Notes under the pieces: model-generated
Seen by the model: the letters and a program-made list of their open reading frames with translations, nothing else
Databases searched by the model: none
Told to the model about the DNA's origin: nothing
Source: Squalus acanthias
Lineage: Eukaryota
NCBI GenBank assembly: GCA_030390025.1
Contig: CM059432.1
Coordinates: 85,624,001-85,688,000, forward strand
Length of the DNA stretch: 64,000 nucleotides
Direction: 5' to 3'
In this document: piece after piece, positions 14,639 to 59,643 of the stretch
How the letters are laid out: every line of letters begins with the position of its first letter
Position numbering within the stretch: the first letter of the stretch is position 1
Program-made: the position numbers and the translations under genes

Positions 14639-15382
14639 GGCCCAGAAATTGATCTCGCTCTGTTCCCGCGGGGGTAAGCCTTTCCCGCGATGTCTCACCT
14701 CGCTTATGCTTTTTCTGATCCAGCTCGCACGAAATTGATGTTCCAGACATCAGCTGTGCTGGGCTTGCGTATCCCAGCGGCGTAGTTAATTCGTGCGAGC
14801 TGTGGGATCACGTGACTCAGTTAGAGCCAATGGCAGCACACCATCTTCCATTCATAAGTCTCACAGCATGGCTGAGAGACTTATGAATCTTACACCCCCC
14901 CAAAATAACAGCTAAACCTCAATTAAATTTTAAAAAAAACCCATCACATTAATAAAATAAGTATAGTTAATTAAATTAACCATTTTAAATAAAAAATTAA
15001 ATTTTTGAAAAAATTTAAAATCTTTTAAAAAGTTATAAAAATAAACTTACCTGTCTTTAAAGTCTATAAAAAAGATATACCTGTAAAAAAAAATTCAAAA
15101 AAATACTTAATTCACTACTTACCTTCTTAAAAGCGGGTCTTACTCCTCCTTTTTACATTTCCAAAATCTTCAGTACTTACCTGCGCGTCCAAAGCATGAA
15201 GTGCACAGCGTGCGCGCAGCCTGTAGCGCGCACGCGATGCACTCCGGCCCCGCCCCCTTTTCGGAAGAGCAATTGCCGGTTTTCAGCGCATGCGCAGGGC
15301 ATGCAGAAAACCGGCAATTGGAGTGGGAATACGCGAGAGTACGCAGTGCGTACTCTCGCGCACCGAGATCAATTTTCGGCCC
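14639..15382. mobile_element. MITE with internal hairpins
   Basis: TIRs GGCCCAGAAATTGATCTCG / CGAGATCAATTTTCGGCCC (16/19 match), flanks ATT/ATG, AT-rich core. Confidence 0.75.
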
Positions 15383-18951: not shown

Positions 18952-20214
18952 TTAGTCATTGGCATAATTTACTGGTCTCTCATGATGCTCCTGGAATGCC
19001 AGAGATGTATTGCCAGGTGCCAACAACCAGTGAAGGGCTGCTGCCTGCCCGTTATGTATCAGGCACTTTCCTGGGTTAGACGGAGACAGTCGATGGGGAG
19101 TTAAGGGGAACAGCTGGAGCACCAAGCAAGGAGCAACTAGCTAGCTAGGCAAGCCAGGGAGACAAAGTGCAGATGTCCAAATTTTTCAAAAAAGTTGGAA
19201 TAGCAGTGTCCCCTTCCGCACCCATGCCCCTCAAATTGGCTCTGTGTGGATGGAGTACTACTCAGGAACTTGAGCCACATTATGGGCCAGCCGCCTCGTT
19301 TGCATGGAGCGCGGTGACTTCTTGAGCCTAGTCAATTTGTGCACAGGCTTCTATCCCCTTTGTGCTCTCTGCCTGCATTGGGGTGCACTGAACACTATGA
19401 GCATACTGTAAGGCCACTGCACCCAATTTTCTGGGGAACAGGCACTCAATCTGCATCAGGCTTCCACCATCACATACTCTACCTCTAATGTCACTTGAGA
19501 TACATGAATACATTTACAAAGAAAGCAAAATAAGGCAAGTACATTCTGCCATTAAGTGCACAGTATTATTAATAATTTCTTATTATTTTACCAGTGTAGT
19601 GCTGTTAAAGTGTTGAACATAACAGCTGGCTGAAAATGTTGTAATTCCTAATAATGGGCATTTCCTATGATTCCTGTCAGGAGGCTTCTTTTGGAAATAT
19701 TATTTAAATCAATAACAATGGGTTTAAGTTAATAACAATGGTTTGTATCTTTAAAAGTAAAAGTGTTCGAGCGCATTTTACAAATGTGCACTCCAGGCAA
19801 GGAGTGCTCCTTATGATTTTCCTTTCATTAGTGGAGCCTTATTCATTAACGGACAGAAAATTCTGGGGAGTGCACCTGCGAATTCTCGATATGTGCTGCT
19901 ACCTGCCAGAAGCATAATTTCGAAAAGCACTCTGTTATGTAATACTAAACTGCATAAACACCACTGTGAGCTCTCGTCAATTTGTAAAATTTCAAAACAA
20001 AATATTAAAACTGTTGCTTTCCATTTCCTTAAAAACCATGTTGTCTCCCTCTGAATCATCTTTCCTTGTTTTATTTATATTTGTAAAAGGTTCCATTCAT
20101 AATGCTGCAACCTTTCAATGACACTTCCTGCCAAAGATTCAAAACCAACACAATTGTGAAATAAATTATGTGAAATATACTAATCAGTTCTTTGTGTTTT
20201 GTTGTATCTTGCAG

Positions 20215-22296
20215 ATTCTGGCCATCATATCCATCTTGTTCATCGTGTTGTCAACTATTGCCTTGTCTCTCAACACCCTTCCTGAACTTCAAGATATGGA
20301 TGAGTTTGGACAATCCAACGACAATCCACAACTTGCCCACGTTGAAGCAGTGTGCATCGCATGGTTCACAATGGAGTACCTTTTGCGTTTCTTATCATCG
20401 CCAAATAAGTGGAAGTTTTTCAAAGGTCCATTGAATGTAATTGATCTTTTGGCTATCTTGCCATATTATATCACAATTTTTCTCACAGAATCAAACAAGA
20501 GTGTGCTCCAGTTCCAGAATGTTAGACGAGTTGTTCAAATATTCCGTATCATGAGGATACTGAGAATTCTTAAACTGGCCCGGCATTCAACAGGACTGCA
20601 GTCATTGGGTTTCACTCTCAGGAGGAGCTACAATGAATTAGGTTTGCTAATATTGTTTTTGGCTATGGGCATTATGATATTTTCAAGCTTGGTATTTTTT
20701 GCTGAAAAAGATGAAGATGCAACAAAGTTTACAAGCATTCCTGCATCTTTCTGGTGGGCTACTATCACTATGACAACAGTTGGATATGGGGACATCTATC
20801 CCAAAACACTGTTAGGCAAAATAGTTGGAGGACTTTGTTGCATTGCTGGAGTGCTAGTGATAGCCCTGCCTATACCAATCATTGTAAACAACTTCTCGGA
20901 GTTCTACAAAGAACAGAAAAGGCAAGAGAAAGCAATTAAGAGAAGGGAAGCACTTGAAAGAGCTAAAAGAAATGGAAGTATTGTCTCCATGAACTTGAAA
21001 GATGCATTTGCTCGCAGCATGGAACTTATGGATATCGTTGTTGAGAAAGGGGAGGATAATGTGATTAAACAAGAAAACCCCCTGGACAATCACCTTTCAA
21101 CATGCAACTGGAAGTGGGGAATGTCTGAAACAAGCTCCAATAAGTCTTTAGAGTCTAAATACCAGGAGCTAAGCCGGCATAACTCAAATGAGCGGTTGAA
21201 TAACCCCAGCTCCAGCCCACAGCATCTGAATGCTCAGAAGCTGGAGGAAATATACAATCAAATGACAAAGACACAGTCTCAACCAAATCTTAATAGTGGC
21301 AAGACAGAGCAGTCTATTAAATCATGTATACATGAAGAAGAACTAGAAATGGAAGAAGTTCCTCACTCAACTGACACATTGCTCACTGCTCCCACAGAGC
21401 CAATATTGGACATGCGGAGTATATCTAGCATTGACAGCTTTGCTAGTTGTACCACTGAATTTACTGAAGCTGAAAGGTCACCACACCCTTCAAAGATACC
21501 CGAGCAAGTGCATCTGAGATGGATTGCTGGCACTGGTCCCCTTAATGAGCATCAGTCTTTCGTGACTGGGGAAAACAGCATGGTCAGAGATGGTGCTTGT
21601 GAACTCAATGACGTAGAGCAGCCAGGGTGCTCCAACTTAAACAGTACAGTGGAAAGCCCCAAGAGCTCACTGAAAGGCAGGAATCCTTTGAAATCTAGGT
21701 CACTTAAAGTAAATTTTATGGAAATTAAAAGCGGTACTCCTCAGACACCACCAAGTACAGCCAGACCACTGCCAGTGATAGTGACAGACTTATCATTGCC
21801 TTCACCTAAGCATATCAGCACCATTCTGCTAGAGGATAACTCTCCTCAGGGTGAGAGGCTACCCTTGGGTACCGATATACCAGCTTTCCAGCAGGCATCC
21901 AGAAAAGGATCACCACAACTATTGCCTAAGAAGAGACTTGTTGCTTTCCAAGCAAGAGGGAGGAAGAGTTGCATTGATATAGACAGTGGCGAAGATGAAG
22001 AGTTACTGGTGGAAGAAGAGGCATACCACAATAACCAGCAGGAAGCCAGGCAGAACTGCTGCATTGGAGCACTTAATAAGCACAGCAAGGATGAAAACTA
22101 CATTGAAGATGTGTCTGTTGTGGATGCTGTTTCTCCAAATTACACCAGTCAAAACTGCACACACAGTGTAGCAGGAGATGGCAAAAAAGACGGCAACCAA
22201 GCTGGATACAAAATGGAAAATCATTTGTTTACACCGGAAATTCACATGAAACCTGGGGAAGGAGGTTATTCATCCTCATGTGAAACCAGCATGTGA
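20215..22296 (+). CDS. KCNB2: Voltage-gated K+ channel Kv2.2, terminal coding exon (S1-S6, pore, C-terminus)
   Basis: Polypyrimidine tract and acceptor TTGCAG|ATTCTG at 20214/20215. S4 [13 protein letters not shown], pore TVGYGD and PIP motifs. Kv2.2-type residues [15 protein letters not shown] and [13 protein letters not shown], and C-terminal ETSM. The first 15 aa of the listed ORF are intronic. Confidence 0.93.
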
Positions 22297-40278: not shown

Positions 40279-40400
40279 ACCAATATATCGAAATAAAAAC
40301 AGAAAATGCTGGAAATACTCAGCAAGTATTTCCAGCATTTTCTGTTTTTATTTCAGTTTTCCAGCATCCGCAGTATTTTGCTTTTGTACCAATATATCGA
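40279..40400. mobile_element. 96-bp hairpin insertion with 13-bp TSD in the Gypsy protease region
   Basis: ACCAATATATCGA at 40279-40291 and 40388-40400. Perfect 30-bp inverted repeat 40290-40319 / 40325-40354. Confidence 0.8.
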
Positions 40401-41674: not shown

Positions 41675-43413
41675 AAGTCTAACACGAAGCCTGTCTATTG
41701 TTGAAAAGTCAGGTGGAGGAAGAGCTGAAGAATCTGAGAGAGAACGGAGTGCTAGTAAAAACTGACAAAAGTGAATGAGCTACCCCGATTGTGGTAGCGC
41801 CCAAAGCAGACAAAACTGAACGCTGGTGTGGTGACTACAAAGTTACTATCAACCAAGCAGTTGACGATGAGCAGTAACCATTACCTACATCGCAAGATTT
41901 GTATGCGGCACTCTCTGGTCAAAGGTTTTCTCCAAGCTTACGCTCAGCTGAATGTTGACAAAGAGAGTCAGCAGTATCTCACTATCAACACACACAAGGG
42001 ATTGTACTCATACACCAAGCTGCCATATGATGTACAGTCCTCCCCCAAAATCTTCCAGGCTACGATGGATAAGATTTTGCAAGGAATTCCCAATTACTTA
42101 TGCAATCAAGATGATGTGCTGATCGCAACAAGCAGCGAGGAAGAAAATCTAGAAGTGTTAGATTTAGTGCTTCAAAGGTTGAATTCCCACAATGTCCAAT
42201 TGAAAAGGAACAAATGTGCTTTTGTGTACCTTGGTCTGAAAGTTGATGCAAATGGATTGGAACCAGTTAAGGAAAAGGTTGATGCTGTCATCAATACTCC
42301 AAAGCCACAGAACGTACTTGAGTTAAAATCTTTCCTTGAAATGGTCCAGTACTACGCACGTTTCTTACCTGAGTTAGCGACCATGTTAGCTCCATTGCAT
42401 GAGCTCCTCAAGAAGGATGTCCAGTATAAGTGGGCAAAAGCGCAACAGGAAGCTTACGACGCTTGTAAGAGAAGTCTCTCTTGCGATGCTCTACTGGTGC
42501 ACTACGACACAGTGTGATGGCTTAAGTTAGCGTGTGATGCTTCTAACTATGGTGTGGGAGCTGTCATAAGCCACGTAATGGATGATGGCCAAGAGAAACC
42601 AATTGCGTTCGCATCGCAAACCCTCACAAAGAGCGAAAAAACTATGCTCAAATTGAAAAGGATGCACTTGCCATAATGTTTGGAATCAAGAAATTCCAAC
42701 AGTTCCTGATTGGCAGAAAGTTTACCCTGATAACCGATCACAAACCTCTTCTAGCAATATTGGTGCCCAAATCTGCCATATCTGCAATGGCCGCATCAAG
42801 AATGCAATGTTGGGCAGTGTTGTTGTCACAATATGACTACACAATTGAATATCGCACTTCAAAGCAAAACACAATCACAGATGCCTTGTCCAGGTTGCCA
42901 CATGAAGACTCATGTGTTGGGAGTGAAGGTGAGATTTTCACACTAGGTGCATTTGACAAAGACTTTCCCGTGAATGCAACTGAGATTGCAATTGAGTCTC
43001 AAAAGGACTCAGTACTGAAAAGAGTGTATGAAAACACCTTGAATGGGTGGACTGATCAGGGTCTGGACACAGAGTTGAAACCATTCCATAACCGTCGTAC
43101 TGAATTGTCTTGTGAACAAGGTTGTATCAAGTGGGGAAACAGAGTGGTGGTACCTACTTCTTTGAGTTTGGAACCAGAACAAAACAGCCCGAAAATTGGT
43201 TTGGTACCAAAACCTTCAGTAAGGAGATCAGGAAGGCTCCGCAAACCTGTTATTAAACTGAATTTGTAGTTCATTTGTAGCATTTGTAGTTGATTTAAAA
43301 GAAAGAAAGTCAGAGTTTTTGTTATGTGGTACATGTAATGCTGGGAAAGGTGGGACCATAGTTTTGTTGTATTTGAGGGGAATATGTACATTTTTTTTTA
43401 AAGGGGAAAGCAG

Positions 43414-47534: not shown

Positions 47535-47686
47535 CAAGTGTGTGTGCAGCTTAAAACTTTACAGCACAATGTTATGGTATCTGCCTCATACATCATTCCT
47601 CTGGCTCCCAAACATAAATAAACCAGCATCAGAACCACCCACCCAGATAAAGTCAACCCATTATAAACTATAAACTAAATTATAAA

Positions 47687-48252
47687 CATTCAGCCTCAGA
47701 TCTTCGGGTAAGCATTCTCCAAGGCGGCCTTCGAGACACACGACAACGCAAAATCATCGAGCAGAAACTGATAGCCAAGTTCCGCACCGATGAGGACGGC
47801 CTCAACCGGGATCTTGGGTTCATGTCACGCTACATGTAACCCCACCTGACGTAGAGTCATCCAGACTCGAGTCGTCATTGGCTTGTTCACAGATGTGATT
47901 TCCAGTAAAAAAAGTAAAATGTTTAAAGTTTTTGGTTTTCCATACAGACTGCAGCATCTGACACATTGGACCCCTTATGACCCCACCTCATTGTCTTAGT
48001 TGTATTTTGCTATGTCTTTGATATAATGTCTTCCTGACTGACCTGATTGTCTCTCTGCCGAGGTGTGATAAAAGGCAGTCAGAAAGATTAACTGTAGTCG
48101 TCTGACATTGTACTCTGCACAGGCATTGTTCTCTGTCTATATATGCTGTGCCGATTTGTATTCCTTCACTTCACCTGATGAAGGAGCAGCAGCTCCGAAA
48201 GCTTGTGATTTCAAATAAAACTGTTGGACTATAACCTGGTGTTGTGCGACTT
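47687..48252 (+). mobile_element. Penelope-like retroelement 3' end (GIY-YIG endonuclease C-terminus + 3' region with hammerhead motif)
   Basis: 47687-47839 translates HSASDLRVSILQGGLRDTRQRKIIEQKLIAKFRTDEDGLNRDLGFMSRYM*. AATAAA at ~48214. Confidence 0.8.
48171..48208 (+). ncRNA. Minimal type I hammerhead ribozyme motif
   Basis: TCAC-CTGATGA-A-GGAGC-AGCA-GCTCC-GAAA-GC-TT-GTGA: 4-bp stem I, 5-bp stem II, palindromic AAGCTT at stem III. Confidence 0.7.
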
Positions 48253-48309
48253 CAAACTAGAAAGCAGCAGAGTTACCCCAGAGTTGAGTCTTCCTTCCCG
48301 CTAGGCCAC

Positions 48310-50317
48310 TTTGGTGACACTGTCTCTAAATTGACACACTGCTTGTCTGACATCCAGTACTGGATGAGCAGAAATTTCCTCCAACTAAGTATTGAGAAGA
48401 CCAAAGTCATCATTTTTAGTCCCCACCACAAACTCAGTTCCCTAGCCACTGACTCCATCCTGCTCCCTGGCAACTGTCTGAGGTTGAACTAGACTGTTTG
48501 CAACCCTGGCGCTATATTTGACCCCGAGATGAGCTTCCGATCATATATCAGTGCCAACACTAAGACCGCCTATTTCCATTTCCGAAACATTACCCATCTC
48601 CGCCCCGCCTCAGCACATCTGCTGCTGAAACCTTCATCCATGCCTTTGTTACCTCTAGACTTGACTATTCCAATGCACTCCTGGCAGGCTTCCCATCTTC
48701 CACACTCCATAAACTTAAGCTCATCCAAAACTCTGCCGCCCATGTCCTAACTCGCACCAAGTCCTGTTCACCTATCATCCCTGTGCTCGCTGAACTACAT
48801 TGAGTCCTGGTTAAGCAGCACCTTGATTTTAAAATTCTCATCCTTGTTTTCAAATCCCTCCATGGCCTCACCCCTCCCCTGCCCTATTTCTACTTGAAAA
48901 ATATCATAACCCGGAGATGTAACAATAGTACTCCCTTGTGACCTGAACTGGATATTGTGTGTCTTTCATACGTGTACTTCTTCAATTTCCCAAAAGCGGA
49001 GCAAGCAAACACTTGATGAAGTGAGGCTGGATATGAATTGTTGACCACTTCCTTGTATCGCTTGCCACCCACATCCCCCTTCTCCCCCGCCAACCCTACT
49101 TCCTTCTGTGTCCGCCCCTGGAAAAAACTCTCTCCCAACTCTCTTACAACTGCACTTACGAAACCCCAACTGTCCAGCCTTTGGCCCTCCAATCACCACG
49201 ACATTTCAGCAGCTACTGATCTGCTCAACCACACCCTCACCACCACCTCTGATGCCCTAGTCCCTATTAAAACCATTACTCTCTCTCACCCTGGCTGTTC
49301 CCTCTGGTACAGCCCTCATCTTCGCTCCCTTAAGTCCAAGGGATGCAGACTTGAGCGTATATAGCAGACAACTGGTTTAGCCATTCACCGCCAGATCTGG
49401 CTGAACCACATAAAGCATTATCGGGTCCTACTCTCATCTGCCAAAACTGCTCATTATTCCAGGATCATTCTGGAATGCAAAGATAACCCCCAGCTTCTTT
49501 TCTCTACTGCAAACCATCTTCGTAAATCCCTCTCTCCTGTCTCCTCCACCCACACTTCCAATAACAAGTGCTAGGAGTTCATGGACCTCTTCTTCTCTAA
49601 AATTGAGACCATCCGATCAGCTGCCTCTGCCCCTTCCGTTCCTTTCCCTGCAAACAGCAAATGATGCTCGATCAATTGTTAATTTTAAATCTGATATTTA
49701 TAGATTATTGTTAACCAAAGGTGTTAAGGGATATGGGGGCAAAGGCAGGTATATGGAGTTCGGTCGCAGATCAGCCATGAGGAGCTAAAAGGCCTACTCC
49801 TGTTCCACTAAGGTTCCCCCCTGCCCTAGCCCTGAACTCACATCTTTCTCCAGTTTCTCTCCGATCTCTCCTCATGACATCTCCGCGCTCATCTTGTCCA
49901 TGAGACCACTTCCTTGTTTTCAAATCCCTTCATGGCTTTGACCCTCCCTATCTCTGTAATCTCCTCCATCCCCACAACCCCCCCGACATATCTGCGCTCC
50001 TCTAATTCTGCCCTCTTGAGCATCCCTGATTTTAATCGCTGAATAATTGGTGGCCGTGCCTTCAGCTGCCAAGGCCCTAATCTCTGGATTTTCTTCCCTA
50101 AACCTCTCTGCCTCTCTACCTCTTTTTCCTTCTTTAAGGCGCTCCTTAAAACCTACCTCTTTGACAAAGCTTTTGGTCATCTGCCCTAATTTCTCCTTAT
50201 GTGTCTCGGTGTCACATGTCGTTTTATAACACTCCGGTGAAGTGCCTTGGGACATTTTACTACGTTAAAGGCACTATATAAATAAAAGTTGTTGGTGTTT
50301 TTGTTATTGTTGTTGCT
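48310..50317 (+). mobile_element. L2-clade LINE fragments (at least two copies: 48310-48885 and ~49043-50317) with a CR1 tail at ~49655-49806
   Basis: CLSDIQYWMSRNFLQL and RLDYSNALLAG motifs. TCCTTGTTTTCAAATCCCT occurs twice (48841, ~49911). 3' tail GCACTATATAAATAAAAGTTGTTG..(TTG)n. Confidence 0.75.
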
Positions 50318-51873
50318 TTATTTCACAGTAAGTTGAACATACAAAACAGCAGTTATGATCAGACTCACTTAATTCAATCAATACAACTTATCTTCGCTTA
50401 ATAGTACAAAATAAAGAACATGTCATGCTTCTCCACATTGTTTGGTCAACCTACTTGACTAATATAGATGTCTTCAAGCACTTTTAACATCTATTCTTAG
50501 CAAAAAAAACCCTCACTGTTCCCTCTTTAAAAACCTGACTGCCTGCCCATTGTGTCTCTGTGTTTTATCTTTGTTTACACCTGGTAAACAATCAAAGACC
50601 TTCCAACACAATTGGCGGGAGGTGGTTATTGATTACAGGGACAAGCTAATGAATTGTTTATTGCTTCCAGTCTTTTGGGAAAATACCTCCCATACCACCT
50701 TTCATCTAGTTGCCTATTTTATAAACTTGAGAGACAAAACTTTGCTTTAAAAACCTAACACATCTTTTCTGTGTAAAAATAGTTTTAAAAAATGTCAAAA
50801 CATGGGCCCCAATATTAACTCCGAGGCACGTTGGGAGTGTGGGGGGGCCGATAACACGTGGGAAACCTAGAAGTAATTTCAACGTGTCTGTGGCATTTTA
50901 ATGCAGCCACCTCATTATCATTTTACTTCCGGGTTTGGTGTCGAAAGCGCGACAATGGGCATGATGCAGACCCGCATGACACGATTACAACTCAAGTTTT
51001 TAAAGGGCTAATCCAAAGATGGAATTTGGAGGAGTTGGATGGTTTTGCACAGAGACAGCTATTGTACAAGACGTGCTCAGGATGCTCAAAGGCTGCGTCC
51101 CGCTTTAACAACGTCTCCCTTGATATGCTGTTGGGTGCAGTGAGGAGTCGAAGAGAGATACTCTTCCCCAACAACGGGAGGAAGAAACCTGCTGCTGCTA
51201 CAAAGAAGGCGTGGCTGGATGTGGTCGAGGAGGTGAGCAGCAGGAGTATTGTGCCACGCTCCTGGATTCAGTGCAGGAAGCGCTTTAATGACCTAAGCAG
51301 ATTAGGAAAGGTGAGTACAGTTGCACATTCACCTACAATCTGCTGTGCACATCATCCCAACCCCTCACTCTGCTTTCTAAAGCCTACTTTCTCACACCCA
51401 CTTACCTTGCAAGAGCACCCATCCTTCTCTTTCTATGCACTTTCTCACATCACCATCTATCCATCCTCCATTGCCACTCACCCTGATCCTCATGCAATTT
51501 GATGCCTCTCCTTGATAGTCACCCTCACCAAGTGCACTGCATCCATCGGTGAGCACATGCCATTACAGTCACTCTTAGGTCTGTTCTTTCCCCTGTTGCA
51601 GGAGAAGACAGCACAGAACACTAGGGAGAGAGAGAGGACCAGAGGTGGTCCCCCACAGATCTCACAGCTGACAACTGCAGAGGAGGAGGCGCTAGAGATC
51701 AGTGGCATCTCACCGTCCCTGGCCATCAGAGATGGGAGATGGGGACCTCCAAGCTACCTAGTGACAGAATTAAATATCACCGACGCGCATGTCATACAAC
51801 ACTCAGTCATGTTCACTTGATTTCAGCAGTGAGTCGTGAGTCAAATATGATCATATTTATTATAATAAGTTAA

Positions 51874-52991: not shown

Positions 52992-54935
52992 TGTAGAAGA
53001 TCAGCCATGATCTTATTGAATGGTGGAGCAGGCTTGAGGGGCCATATGGCCTACTCCTGCTCCTAATTCTTATGATCTCATGTTTCGTTGTACCGATCAT
53101 GGGCTTCATTGGTGGGGTGTCTCACGGGTGCCATCAGCCAAGTTTGAAGCAGGTTTCCTTTGTCTCCTAGCAGCCACCCCTTAAGCCTGTTGCAGGTCCA
53201 ATGAGATCAGGGAGCTTGGACAGCTGCAGGATGAAAGCGTCATTGCAGCTTCCTGGGAATCTGTCACATACCTGCATAAATCTTTTCTTGTGATTGCACA
53301 CCAGCTGCACTGTGATGGAGTTGAAGCCCTTGCGGTTCACCAATACTCCTCGTTGATCTGGGGGTGCGCAGATTGCCACATGCGCAATCGATGACGCCCT
53401 GTTCCAGTGGGAAGTTCTTTATGATTCATGTCACCAGAGCAGACTAGAAAAGGCCAAGAAAAATCTGGAAAAAGTTTCACTTTCTGTATGAAAAAGAGGG
53501 AATACTTTGAAATAAAACTATTCCATCTACATTTTCCTTGTGCTTTTACTATATGCAGAGTAGAACCTCCTGAAGGAGGCCTGATTACATCTGTAGATGA
53601 GATTGTGGCCAGCATGATGTAACAGACTGCCTGCAGTGTGACACATGGCCTGAACTACATAGAGTTCCCCAATAGGCTACTTTTATTTTTATCCAGGTCT
53701 CGCACCCCTTTTGAACCTGGTAACAAAAAGCCATGCTCTGCCTCACACCAGAGGCCTTTTGACATATCAGCTGTGGCTCAGTGGGTAGCACTCTCTAGGT
53801 GGGAGGGGCTAGGAGTGAGCAGGTGCTATTGGGTGTTTGATTACTGCAGGGAGTTGGAGTGAGTTTGTAAAACGTTGGTGGTGGGTTTTTTTTTCAGGTT
53901 TTAGGGCCTTTTTGGTCCATAAGCAGCAGCCAAATGGCTGCTGAGCTGGGCCCCTCCGAGGACAATGTTCCCAGGATGAATTTAATCAGGGGAGAAAATG
54001 TTGGGGGAAGGAAGAATAAAAGGCCCAAAGATTTGGGCCGGGACCCCAGGAGGTTTGGAAAAGAAAACACGGTGGCGGTTCAGTGCGAGGATAAGGAGAT
54101 ATGAGCTTGGGATAATATCCAGGCGGTACATGAGGACTGCGGTGAGGGAAGCTGCTTTGCCTGCCGGCCAAAGCCGAATGTTAGGTTCGAGGTGACGGTC
54201 AATGGCCGAGAGGAGGTGGAAAGACTTTTACTCAGTTTGAAGGTTGGAGATAAGTTCTTGGAGGTATCTCTGCTATATCCTGAAGAGGTGGTGGCCTCAT
54301 GCTTAAACCTGCCGGTTTATATTGAAGATGATGTGCTAATAAAAAAGTTGGAGTCGTGGGACATTAAAATTTGCTTGGCAATAAAGAGGAAATATTATCC
54401 AGGAATGCGGGTAGCAGATGGAACCCGTTATGTAAAGGTATGGTTCCCAGAGGGGGTGAAGTCATTGCCATATAGCTTGAATTTTGAGACAATGGAAGGA
54501 GTGCATTACTTCCGGGTACTGCATGATAACCAGGTGAAGGTTTGTTACTATTGTCTTGGACACGACCATCTTGTAAGAAGCTGTCAGACTTGTACTGTTA
54601 TAACTGCGGCGAGTCTGGACACATCGCTCAGAGCTGCAAGGCGGAGAGCTGTGGGGTGTGTCACAAAGGCCCCACCCGCTGTGAGTGTGAGGCAAAAAGA
54701 AGCCCCTTGAGTGATGAGGAGATGGGAGAAGGAGCAGGAGGTATGAGTGGAGCGGCCGGAGGAGCGGAGCAGGCGTAGGACACAGCTGGTGAATGGAAGG
54801 AGAAAAAAGTGCAGGAAGAGGCAGAAAATTGCGGAGAAGAGAACAGGATGGAGATGGTGAAAAATACGCCAAGTATGGTGGAAAAGGACAAAGACAGCAG
54901 AGGGCAGCACGGGCCGAGGACAGAGTCGAGCCAAG

Positions 54936-57511
54936 CCCCGAACAGTAGCAATACTGTTGGACAGAGTATAAATCAACAAATAATGGAGGCCTGTAAAAAA
55001 GGTACGGTAATATTCATGGGTGATTTTAATCTCCATATTGATTGGACAAACCAAATTGGCCATGGTAGCCTTGAGGAGGAGTTCATAGAGTGTATTCGGG
55101 ATGGTTTCCTAGAACAGTATGTAATGGAACCAACCAGGGAGCAGGCTATCTTGGATCTGGTACTGTGTAATGAGACAGAATTAATAAATGATCTCATAGT
55201 AAAGGATCCTCTAGGAAAGAGTGATCATAACATGGTTGAATTTCAAATTCAGTTGGAGGGTGAGAAAGTTGTATCTCAAACCAGTGTCCTGATCTTAAAC
55301 AAAGGCAATTACAATGGCATGAGGGCAGAACTGGCTAAAGTGGACTGGAAAAATAAATTAAAAGGTAAGACAGTTGAAATGCAGTGGCCGACATTTAAGG
55401 AGATATTTTATAACTCTCAACAAAAAGATATTCCAGTGAGAAAGAAAGATTTTAAGAGAAGGGAGCACTATCCGTGGCTAACTAAGGAAGTAAAGGATGG
55501 TATCAAATTGAAAACGAAGGCATACAATGTTGCCAAGAGTGGTGGGAGGCCAGAGGATTGGGAAATTTTTAAAAACCAGCAAAGGATGACCAAAAAAATA
55601 ATAAAGAGAGAGAAGCTGAATTATGAGAGTAAACTGGCAAGAAATATTAAAACAGAAAGTAAGAGCTTCTACAGGTATATAAAAAGGAAGAGAGTAGCTA
55701 AAGTAAACGTTGGTCCCTTAGAAGATGAGAATGGGGAATTAATAATGGGGAACGGGGAAATGGCAGAGTCTCTGAACAAATATTTTGTATCTGTCTTCAC
55801 GGTAGAAGACACTAACAACATCCCAATAATGGATAATCAAGGGGCCACAGGGAGGGGGGAACTAATGACAATCACTATCACTAAGGAAAAAGTACTTCGT
55901 AAAATAATGGAACTAAAAGACGACAAGACCCCTGGACCAGATGGCCTGCATCCCAGGGTCTTAAAAGAAGTGGCTGTAGAGATAATGGATGATTTGGTTG
56001 CAATATACCAAAATTCCCTGGATTCTGGAGAGGTCCCAGCAGATTGGAAAATCGCAAATGTAACTCCCCTATTTAAGAAAGGAGGGAGACAGAAAGCAGG
56101 AAACTATAGACCAGTTAGCCTAACATCTGTCGTTGGGAAAATGCTGGTGTCCTTCATTAAGGAAGCAGTAGCAGGGCATTTGGAAAATCATAATGCAGTC
56201 AAGCAGAGTCAGCATGGTTTTATGAAAGGGAAATCATGTTTAACAAACTTGCTGGAGTTCTTTGAGGAGGTAATGAGCAGGGTGGACAAAGGTGAACCAG
56301 TGGATGTGGTGTATTTGGATTTCTAGAAGGCATTCGATAAGGTGCCACATAAAAGGTTACTGCATAAGATAAGAGCTCACGGAATTGGGGGTAATATATT
56401 AGCATGGATAGAGAATTGGCTAACTAACAGAAAGCAGAGAGTTGGGATAAATGGGTAATTTTCCGGTTGGCAAACGGTTACTAGTGGGGTGCCACAGGGA
56501 TCGGTGCTGGAGCCTCAACTATTTACAATCTACATTAATGACTTGGATGAAGGGACCGAGTGTAATGTAGCCAAGTTTGCTGATGATACAAAGATGGGTG
56601 GGAAAGCAAGTTGTGCAGAGGACTCAAAGAATCTGCAAAGGGATATAGACAGGCTAGGTGAGTGGGCAAACATTTGGCAGATGGAGTATAATGTGGGAAA
56701 CTGCGAGGTTATCCACTTTGGCAGGAAAAATAAAAAAGCAAATTATTATTTAAATGGAGCGAGATTACAAAATGCTATAGTTCAGAGGGACCTGGGGGTC
56801 CTTGTGCATGAAACACAAAAAGTTAGCATGCAGGTACAGCAAGTAATCAAAAAGGCAAATGGAATGTTGGCCTTTATTGCAAGGGGGTTGGAGTATAAAA
56901 GCAGGGAAGTCCTGCTACAACTGTACAGGGTATTGGTGAGACCACACCTTGAGTACTGCGTACAGTTTTGGTCTCCTTATTTAAGGAAGGATATACTTGC
57001 ATTGGAGGCAGTTCAGAGACGATTCACTCGATTGATTCTTGAGATAAGAGGGTTGACTTATGAAGAAAGGTTGAGCAGGTTGGGCCTATACTCATTGGAA
57101 TTTAGAAGAATGAGAGGTGACCTTATTGAAACATATAAGATACTGAAGGGGCTCGACAAGGTAGATGCAGAGAGGATGTTTCCCTCGTGGGGAAATCTTG
57201 AACTCGGGGGCATAGTTTCAGAATAAAGGGTCGCCCTTTTAGAACTGAGATGAGGAGGAATTTCTTCTCTCAGAGGGTTGTAAATCTGTGGAATTCTCTG
57301 CCCCAGAGAGCCGTGGAGGCTGAGTCATTAAATACATTTAAGGTGGAGATAGACAGATTTTTGCAAGATAAGGGAGTGAAGGGTTATGGGGAGCAGGGCA
57401 GGGAAGTGGCTTTGAGCCCAAGATCAGCCATGATCTTATTGAATGGCGGAGCAAACTCGAAGGACCAAGTGGCCTATTCCTGCTCCCATTTCTTATGTTC
57501 TTATGTTCTTA
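54936..57511 (+). mobile_element. 5'-truncated CR1 inserted in the Tx1-like element
   Basis: APE and RT motifs in ORFs 54809-56326 and 56489-57226; tail TTCTTATGTTCTTATGTTCTTAT. Confidence 0.95.
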
Positions 57512-59643
57512 TACGGCTCGGCTGTTTTGGTAAGTCCGTCCATGAAAGAGAACGTTGCCTTGGTGGACAAGGACACTGAGGGGAGATTTTTACGGCTAAA
57601 GGTAAAATTGGAGGAATTTAATTGCGATCTCTTTAATATCTACGCACCGGACGACCATTGTAAGCGTTGCGAGTTTTTTTGGTGGTTATTCACTGAAGTG
57701 GCAGGGGCAGAAAACACTTGTATAGTGGGGGATTTTAACGTATTTTTTTTTATCTCGGATGGACATTTCAGCCCAGATGACCTTTAAGGATGATAACTCC
57801 AGAGGGATGATTGTAAAAATGATGGCAAATTTAAATTTGAGAGACTTATGGCGGGATCGGAACCCCATAAAAAGGGAGTTCTCCAGAAGAGGTTGGGTGG
57901 GTGATGTTTTAAAACAGCCGAATAGATTTTGTGTTAATGCGGGAAGGGTTAAGTTCTGAGGTGATGGAGATTTATTACAAAAAAGTATTTTTTAGTGACC
58001 ACTCAGCTTTGGTTCTTAGAATTAGGAACAGCAGAGTTAAGATCAGTCCAGGGGTGTGGATTTTAAACAATCAATACCTGAAAGAAATTGCTTATAAAGA
58101 AGGGATTTTAAATATAAATAATGCTCGGAAGGAACCTTTATTCTTGAAAGAAAGAAGAGTTTGGTGAGACAATTTCAAATATGATGTCAAAGTTTTTTCA
58201 GTATGTTATGGGAAAGAGAGAGCGGCAGCTAACCGACATCGAGAATAGAATATAAACAGAAGGTTTACAGATATCTGTAAAGCGGTTGACGGAGGGGATA
58301 AGGGAGCAGAGACTAAGTGGGTGGTTTTAAAGGAAGAGTGGGAATTATTGCAAGCTGATAAATGCAAGGGGGCCATTCTCCGTGCAAAGGCTAAAGATGT
58401 GTTGGAGGGAGAAAGATGCACCAGATACTTTCTAGAGCAAGAGAAGCTGTGACAAAGGTTATCATTAATTGGAGAGTTGAAGGTTGGGAAGAAGATCATT
58501 CATGAAAGTGGGGAGATTTTGGAGGCGGCTAGTAGCTTTTATCAAGAGTTATATACGAAAGAAGACATTTCCAAATTGGCGATGGAGAAGGTTAGTGCTT
58601 TTATTGAAGAGGGTTTAAAGGAGGATGAGAGAAGCATGTGTGACAAAGAAGTAGGATTAGCGGAAATAAAAGTAGCAATAAGTGGAATGAAGGGGGGGAA
58701 AGCCCAGGGTCTGATGGACTAAGTGCAGAATTTTATAAAGAATTTTTAGAGATTTTAAGTCCATTACTCTTAGAGGTTTTTAAGGAGATTAAAATTGAGG
58801 GAAGCCTGGCCCCATCTATGAGAAGAGATATCACAAGCTTAGCTTATAAAAAATAAAGGGGATAGAAGGGATCTAAAGAATTGGAGGCGTATCACATTAT
58901 TAAATGTGGATTATAAGATCTTGGCGAGGGTTATGGCAAATCGTATGAAGGAGGTGATGCCGCAGATAATTTTGCCCTCTCAGTCCTATGGTGTCATAGG
59001 CCGGGACATCGCAGACTCTGTGGTCTCATAGAGCTCATGGAAGAGAGTGGGAGAGAGGCTTATGTGTTAAAGATAGATCAAGAGAAAGCCATTGATAGGG
59101 TGTTTATTGAGTTTTTATTGATGATTTTGGAAGCATTTGGTTTCGAGAAAAATTTCATTGAGTGGATAAGGATTTTTTATTCAAACATATTTAGCTGTGT
59201 TAAATGTAATGGTTTTTTATCCAAGTATTTTCCGATACAGAGGTCAGTGAGACAGGGTTGTCCCCTGTCCCCATTGTTGTACACATTGGTAGCAGAACCA
59301 TTAGGTTACATGATGCGAAAGGAACAAGGCATATTCGGGATTGCGGTTCTCAGTTACGGGCGGGTGTCGGTGATACACCAATATGCAGATGACACAACCT
59401 TAACGTTGAGAGATGGGGAGTCAGTGAGGAAAGCTATGGGAGTAGTGGAGGAGTATTGTTGAGCTTCAGGAGCCAGAGTGAATTATAGTAAGTCCAAATG
59501 CCTGGTTGCAGGAAGGGGTAGGGTGAATGGTTGCAGGAAAGCCCCTTTAAGGTGGTGGAGGTTTTGGAAGTTCTGGGGGTGCATATGGGATGAAGAAGGA
59601 CAGGGATGAAGTGGATCAATTAAATTGGGAACTGAAAGCTATG

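Follow-up and report, generated by a model that had tools for sequence, protein, structure and literature searches.

The question raised by this locus is whether a 38-nt sequence at the 3' end of a truncated retrotransposon, in a shark genome, belongs to a known lineage of self-cleaving RNAs, and whether the family that carries it, or this copy in particular, could make any use of it. We addressed it within the whole stretch of DNA that was analysed, 64 kb in length and hereafter called the window, through protein and RNA relatives, shuffled sequences, folding predictions, contigs of public runs and the literature.

Anatomy of the 38-nt motif

A 38-nt minimal hammerhead (min-HHR) occupies 48171-48208 on the + strand, and every part of it was confirmed base by base. 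Its features are given below, with those of L001, a distant relative described further on, where relevant.

48171-48174, + strand: stem I 5' strand TCAC, pairing with 48205-48208; its outer pair T-A is A-T in L001
48175-48181, + strand: catalytic core CTGATGA (C3 to A9), with T as N7 at 48179
48182, + strand: unpaired A typical of min-HHRs, between 9 and 10.1
48183-48196, + strand: stem II, 5 bp, first pair G-C, pair probabilities 1.0
48183-48187 and 48192-48196, + strand: stem II strands GGAGC and GCTCC, around a 4-nt loop II, AGCA
48197-48200, + strand: GAAA, of which G12-A13-A14 begin the segment 48197-48204
48199-48204, + strand: self-complementary AAGCTT, with the inner palindrome AGCT at 48200-48203 (A15.1 to U16.1)
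48204, + strand: T as H17; the TT of the UH is 48203-48204 and the predicted cut follows 48204
48205-48208, + strand: stem I 3' strand GTGA, pairing with 48171-48174

The original prediction had proposed this core, the GGAGC/GCTCC stem II, the TCAC/GTGA stem I and the AAGCTT, all of which were found on the + strand where it had put them, and it had assigned the cleavage site correctly, after the H17 at 48204. Its palindromic stem III has to be narrowed: AAGCTT is indeed present, but stem III can be formed by the inner AGCT alone, as the active core requires A14 and U17 to be unpaired (numbered as in PMC4209133, Fig. 1). This AGCT is its own reverse complement, which gives a palindromic 15.2-16.2 and no stable helix III, and G 48183 with C 48196 provides the G10.1-C11.1 pair, also present in L001.

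The host element and its protein relatives

The motif lies in a short element copy, which we describe as follows.

47687-48253, + strand: 5'-truncated Penelope-like copy (endonuclease end, 3' pLTR and tail), ~567 nt, delimited by contigs and protein likeness
47687-47839, + strand: last 50 endonuclease codons and TAA stop, without RT and without the GIY-YIG motif
48138-48144, + strand: TATA-like box TATATAT, putative promoter, 30 nt before the Inr-like A
48166-48170, + strand: Initiator-like TCACT directly before stem I, putative start at 48168
48209-48253, + strand: 3' tail, with the block 48224-48234 shared with L001

Protein likeness begins at the His codon at 47687. A search with the last 51 residues of the remnant as query retained 14 of 25 candidates; 12 of these 14 were inspected as sequences, all of them containing the same endonuclease-end stretch, and 6 of the 14 were scanned with Pfam. 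The shark protein P0001 (643 aa, with an RT domain, PF00078/RVT_1) is 92% identical to the remnant and ends in the window's peptide, and P0004, 82% identical, carries GIY-YIG (PF01541). The remnant thus matches Penelope-like retrotransposon proteins, as had been proposed from the letters of the window. It had also been said to end in a GIY-YIG-type C-terminus about 330 nt before the motif: the distance from the TAA stop (47837-47839) is 331 nt, whereas the GIY-YIG motif itself is absent from the copy, and Pfam found no domain in the 62-aa remnant.

Longer relatives show RT, then a C-x4-C-x2-C linker, and the endonuclease last; by eye, the linker stands before the endonuclease in P0001, P0005, P0007 and P0010-P0013. 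A CX2-5CxxC zinc-finger linker between RT and endonuclease is given as defining Neptune and Nematis (Craig et al., PMC8557442). Judged from this linker, the family is of the Neptune or Nematis type, and judged through P0001 and P0004 it is an EN+ Penelope-like element with a predicted single ORF encoding RT together with GIY-YIG at its C-terminal end. The same Penelope endonuclease end was also seen in three shark gene models, P0002, P0005 and P0014, which include XRCC5 isoform X2, FAM204A isoform X2 and one Pyrin-domain model; these ends are either exonised copies or annotation errors.

Within the 64-kb window, the remnant was the sole tblastn match of P0001 and blastn found no second copy of the element; the window contains no second motif, and the truncated copy lacks a second, 5' pLTR. 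A possible target-site duplication was not accepted, the AAACTA behind the 3' end recurring, by eye, near the 5' junction and not at it. In viral contigs, the degenerate DNA pattern of the motif gave 0 matches and protein alignment retained 0 of 110 candidate stretches, and no match was obtained in plasmids and phages.

Conservation in a distant relative

Among the 604 metagenome candidate stretches listed by a protein-based scan, at least one, the locus L001 (65% to the protein used as query), allowed the motif to be compared over a larger distance. L001 was located via its protein, independently of the RNA motif, and its own motif stands 273 nt behind the stop, as the sole descriptor match in its 1360 nt. 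Pairs were compared by position, as two-sequence MAFFT alignments put a misplaced gap in the core. All 8 compared pairs were kept between L001 and the window, two having changed on both sides (stem I outer T-A to A-T; stem II third A-T to C-G) and one on one side (stem II fourth G-C to G-U). GAAAGCTT is identical in the two motifs, and differences are found in N7 (A in L001) and loop II. The check by core conservation and covariation that had been suggested for this motif was thus partly favourable: two compensatory pairs were found, in evidence spanning two sequences, the window copy and L001, whereas the pattern within the family, presented below, is consistent with constraint and not significant.

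The conservation is not confined to the hammerhead. Indeed, 48164-48242 is the only significant block common to both 3' UTRs (75% over 81 columns, E 1.7e-9; next E 0.23), and it spans from the Inr-like TCACT through the tail, well past the ribozyme. L001 also has TATATAAA 29-31 nt before its own Inr-like A, with TCACT at L001:976, and the spacing from TATA to Inr, ribozyme and tail is the same in the shark element and in L001, at about 65% protein identity. A TATA and Inr pair has been described in rotifer pLTRs (PMC3846280), and by analogy the two boxes would be the promoter of the pLTR. The tail may be a protein-recognition or RT-start region, a role suggested after PMC11167929; no ATG occurs in the window copy downstream of the cut site.

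Two features of L001 were noted in addition. In L001:976-1075, stem I can be extended by 5 pairs over a bulge via the Inr-like sequence, which is not so in the window motif, and behind the tail a TACTAAC (1065) followed by CAG resembles a splice branch point and acceptor. A further locus, L002, was the one retained by protein alignment among 19 candidate stretches in prokaryote genomes. It is an animal-type Penelope element (L002:1-1304) on a contig of a bacterial symbiont assembly, a contig that is probably host DNA, and its sequence ends ~27 nt after the stop.

Chance occurrence, folding and Rfam

The bare core CTGANGA-N(3-30)-GAAA was not enriched in the window, with 9 matches for 6.2 expected and 16 of 100 shuffles reaching 9. 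By contrast, a full minimal-hammerhead descriptor (stem I of at least 4 bp, stem II of at least 3 bp, core and UH) applied to both strands of the 64 kb gave one match, 48171-48208. Among 300 dinucleotide shuffles, the relaxed descriptor was matched in 8 and a strict one (stem II of at least 4 bp plus palindromic stem III) in none, in a test that is biased in favour of the motif, the descriptor having been composed with the motif already known.

The 38-mer alone is predicted to fold into stems I and II at -12.1 kcal/mol, with pair probabilities of 0.65-1.0, and 7 of 200 shuffles were equally stable; with flanks, the folding energy was ordinary (z -1.40 and z -0.39). This predicted fold has type I topology, with a 4-bp stem I and a 5-bp stem II (helix II thus having at least 4 pairs), and stem I stops at 4 bp, short of the canonical type I hammerhead, in which helix I has 6 bp and loops 1 and 2 are in contact. 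Rfam at gathering score gave no hammerhead in the whole window, its one match being to a potassium-channel family, and at E<=10 over 47600-48400 it gave no hammerhead and two chance-level matches. The motif had been expected to be missed by protein-based annotation; Rfam scans likewise miss such motifs.

Variation among copies in public runs

Copies of the family were judged from contigs of 4 of 23 public runs, aligned to 47560-48420. Two of the runs, guessed to be RNA, consist of contigs in which neither strand nor ends are readable. The four runs gave 13871, 2155, 123 and 1746 contig records, mostly 90-99% alike, and the window copy thus belongs to a very abundant family. In all four, coverage starts at ~47686 (bin 47676-47704) and continues to 48253, behind which 114 contigs of run X1 depart with mixed letters (agreement 0.47). 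It is because the contigs span ~47686-48253 and then give way to mixed flanks that we describe the locus as a 567-nt 5'-truncated copy of this family. The window copy departs from nearly all others at several sites, e.g. 47789, 47877 and 47977.

Among the 40 substitution sites listed, to which 55 more add, 34 fall in the element and two in the motif, at 48179 (N7) and 48191 (loop II); among the indels listed, those in the motif affect loop II only (48190-48191). None of the 34 listed element sites touches the 33 constrained motif positions in the 4 runs (P 0.12; 0.09 for the UTR alone), and P is 0.014 for both in-motif sites landing within the 5 tolerant positions. In X1, roughly two thirds of the contig depth, which is not a copy number, has C at N7, and loop II is variable among copies. 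The tail beside the motif is equally invariant. Variation at the level of copies fits selection on the motif but is not significant alone.

In 4 of 4 runs, contig depth rises by a factor of 3.0 to 6.1 from the preceding bin to the bin that starts at 48198. We did not count this rise as copies starting at the cut site, because depth of contigs does not measure copies and other families sharing the tail, like L001, explain it equally well. A small number of contigs, with other letters upstream, enter the element at 48169 (5, X16) or 48173 (2, X15); these could be copies starting at the Inr or hammerhead, or other subfamilies.

Comparison with known hammerheads

Cervera and De la Pena (2014; PMC4209133) described min-HHRs in the pLTRs of metazoan Penelope-like elements (PLEs), by thousands per genome and mostly as single truncated copies, the hosts including fish, coelacanth, frog and reptiles. 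In Table S1 of the same work, 5'-truncated PLEs with the 3' motif alone are the common case. The window motif matches the published core (CUGANGA...GAAA...UH), type I topology and short stem I, contains all four features by which the min-HHR is named (9/10.1 nucleotide, G10.1-C11.1, palindromic 15.2-16.2 and covariation), and occupies the same place in the pLTR behind the PLE endonuclease (PMC4209133). The earlier statement that Penelope-like elements carry minimal type I hammerheads is thus well illustrated here, in all features compared.

In Fig. S3 of PMC4209133, the GCUU ending of the window motif recurs in the painted turtle and Philodina rows (2 of 56 min-HHRs) and its stem I, UCAC/GUGA, in the lamprey row; in this comparison the GAAA column was placed from the consensus line, the rows having been extracted apart from it. 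Cartilaginous fish are absent from the 56 rows of that figure, and no structural difference from the min-HHR as presented there was found. By description, the motif also resembles the small PLE hammerheads of Lunse et al., which have a very short palindromic stem III and cleave as dimers according to a review (PMC6765202). A literature search for shark Penelope hammerheads gave no shark host among its matches, where 'shark' denotes a shape. The kind has been in print since 2014, and the cartilaginous-fish host is new to the 2014 table. A single copy matters little, as one shark example added to a class with thousands of copies.

As for activity, min-HHRs did not cut as monomers and cut at a low level as dimers or trimers (PMC4209133). 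The motif of PAc, a Poseidon element of the green anole, is reported to cut only with the element's protein; in that report, insertion in vitro persists in hammerhead mutants, and the cut site coincides with no RNA read end (Frangieh et al., 2024; PMC11167929). Like the window copy, PAc carries in its pLTR a hammerhead limited to stems I and II, behind which a tail closes the insertion; it differs as a member of Penelope/Poseidon whose ORF starts inside stem II (PMC11167929), whereas the relatives of the window copy carry the Neptune/Nematis linker. Animal non-LTR retrozymes also use pLTR-derived type I hammerheads, which need dimers in vertebrates (PMC7229834; 10.64898/2026.07.22.740005), and a 2026 preprint reports hammerhead retrozymes in one chondrichthyan genome among 35 species (10.64898/2026.07.22.740005). 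Retrozymes are tandem non-coding repeats, unlike the window, where one copy in 64 kb is joined to endonuclease codons. The self-cleavage proposed in the original prediction has been demonstrated, weakly, for homologues only, whereas the window copy is single and truncated, with no second motif in the window.

Proposed mechanism and alternative explanations

The motif is almost certainly a homologue of PLE min-HHRs. Taken as a whole, the locus is very probably a genuine min-HHR in the 3' pLTR of an abundant shark PLE, with slow cutting aided by a dimer or by protein, the window copy being a passenger. From a mechanistic point of view, transcription would begin in the upstream pLTR of a tandem or full element, at the TATA/Inr immediately preceding the motif, and stems I and II would then fold in cis. 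Two copies would pair their palindromic AGCU, or the element's protein would hold the fold, a partner or a protein being needed because stem III cannot close on a 2-nt loop. The core would then cut slowly after U17 (48204), trimming the element's RNA. We infer the promoter, the dimer formation, the cleavage and the inertness of the window copy alike. Measurable cutting by the family motif, as a dimer or with protein, is likely. It is improbable that, in the animal, the window copy has any effect by cutting RNA; it is probably idle because it lacks RT, has no partner motif in the window and lies among other repeat fragments behind Kv2.

Nearest-neighbour models, which ignore the tertiary contacts of the core, gave -21.7 kcal/mol for the double hammerhead versus 2 x -12.1 for two monomers, and lower energies for competing forms (-24.3 kcal/mol with A14-U17 paired; -29.9 kcal/mol for a stem-II-swapped dimer). 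Such modelled energies do not favour the active dimer; they fit a weak or helper-dependent activity, and equally a motif that no longer cuts. H17 as U and the GCUU ending are no defect peculiar to the window copy, since L001 shares them, as do 2 of the 56 rows of the published figure.

The best-surviving alternative is a motif of hammerhead descent that the family retains not for catalysis but for protein binding or a promoter-proximal role (as Inr, 5' leader or tail recognition). The extent of the block shared with L001, from Inr through tail, would suit such a role, as would the predicted energies, in which the active dimer is not the lowest form. CUU is moreover not the best triplet, which is GUC (PMC2238771), the anole hammerhead mutants insert normally in vitro (PMC11167929), and Naiads spread without hammerheads (PMC8557442). 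However, the conserved part of the motif coincides precisely with the catalytic consensus, N7 and loop II being free to vary and the stems covarying, and in the anole motif cleavage takes place with protein and is abolished by C3G or G8C (PMC11167929). We consider a non-catalytic role unlikely.

It is far less probable that the window copy itself is active or co-opted, its RNA coming from its own TATA/Inr or from Kv2 read-through and being cut via pairing in trans with other copies. Core and stems are intact despite several copy-specific differences elsewhere, and the copy is on the same strand as the last Kv2 exon; yet it sits amid further repeat fragments, ~26 kb downstream of the Kv2 stop (22296), and where copy-specific changes are so few, chance alone would be expected to leave a 38-mer intact. 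Least probable of all is a chance look-alike, for which the chance frequency of the bare core, the unremarkable fold with flanks and the missing Rfam match could be invoked, but which is opposed by the rarity of the full descriptor and the expected place in a PLE and contradicted by L001, where the motif is kept with compensatory changes.

Within the preferred reading, that of a genuine but weak min-HHR, a role may tentatively be considered, although we hold it to be rather doubtful. The hammerhead starts 3-4 nt behind the putative TATA/Inr start, and in this PLE lineage it might act as a built-in 5'-end switch: the cut would take away no more than the initial 35-37 nt with their cap, and the conserved tail would then stand at the RNA's new 5' end. 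If this were true, and if cutting depended on the element's own protein or on a second copy, the outcome would be a copy-number-sensitive, negative-feedback decapping of transposon mRNA, for which truncated copies, being numerous, could provide trans partners, and the role of PLE hammerheads would become testable in a 120-nt construct. The family is in any case of some use as a test system for PLE hammerhead function, because that question still stands (PMC8557442; PMC11167929) and because promoter-like boxes, ribozyme and tail lie within ~115 nt and are conserved in L001.

Surroundings of the element

Upstream of the element, a Kv2 (KCNB-type) potassium channel has its large last coding exon at 20122-22296 (+ strand; Pfam Kv2channel, Ion_trans). 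This exon contains the Rfam match K_chan_RES, a potassium-channel RNA editing signal (20779-20892, 91.5 bits), which may just reflect conserved pore and S6 codons.

A second high-copy repeat, 48318 to about 48900 (+ strand), begins 64 nt after the Penelope copy, and 138 contigs join before 48318. We take it to resemble the end of an L2/CR1-type RT; Pfam gave no match. Of 14 frames scanned with Pfam, 8 had no match. Further mobile-element remnants were located at 41798-43269, 50855-51502, 54779-56326 and 58917-59462, in that order RT with RNase H (LTR), a Myb/SANT-like frame, endonuclease with RT (LINE), and RT. Near-perfect palindromes were also observed at 40290-40354 (65 nt, 92%) and 15270-15320 (53 nt, 83%).
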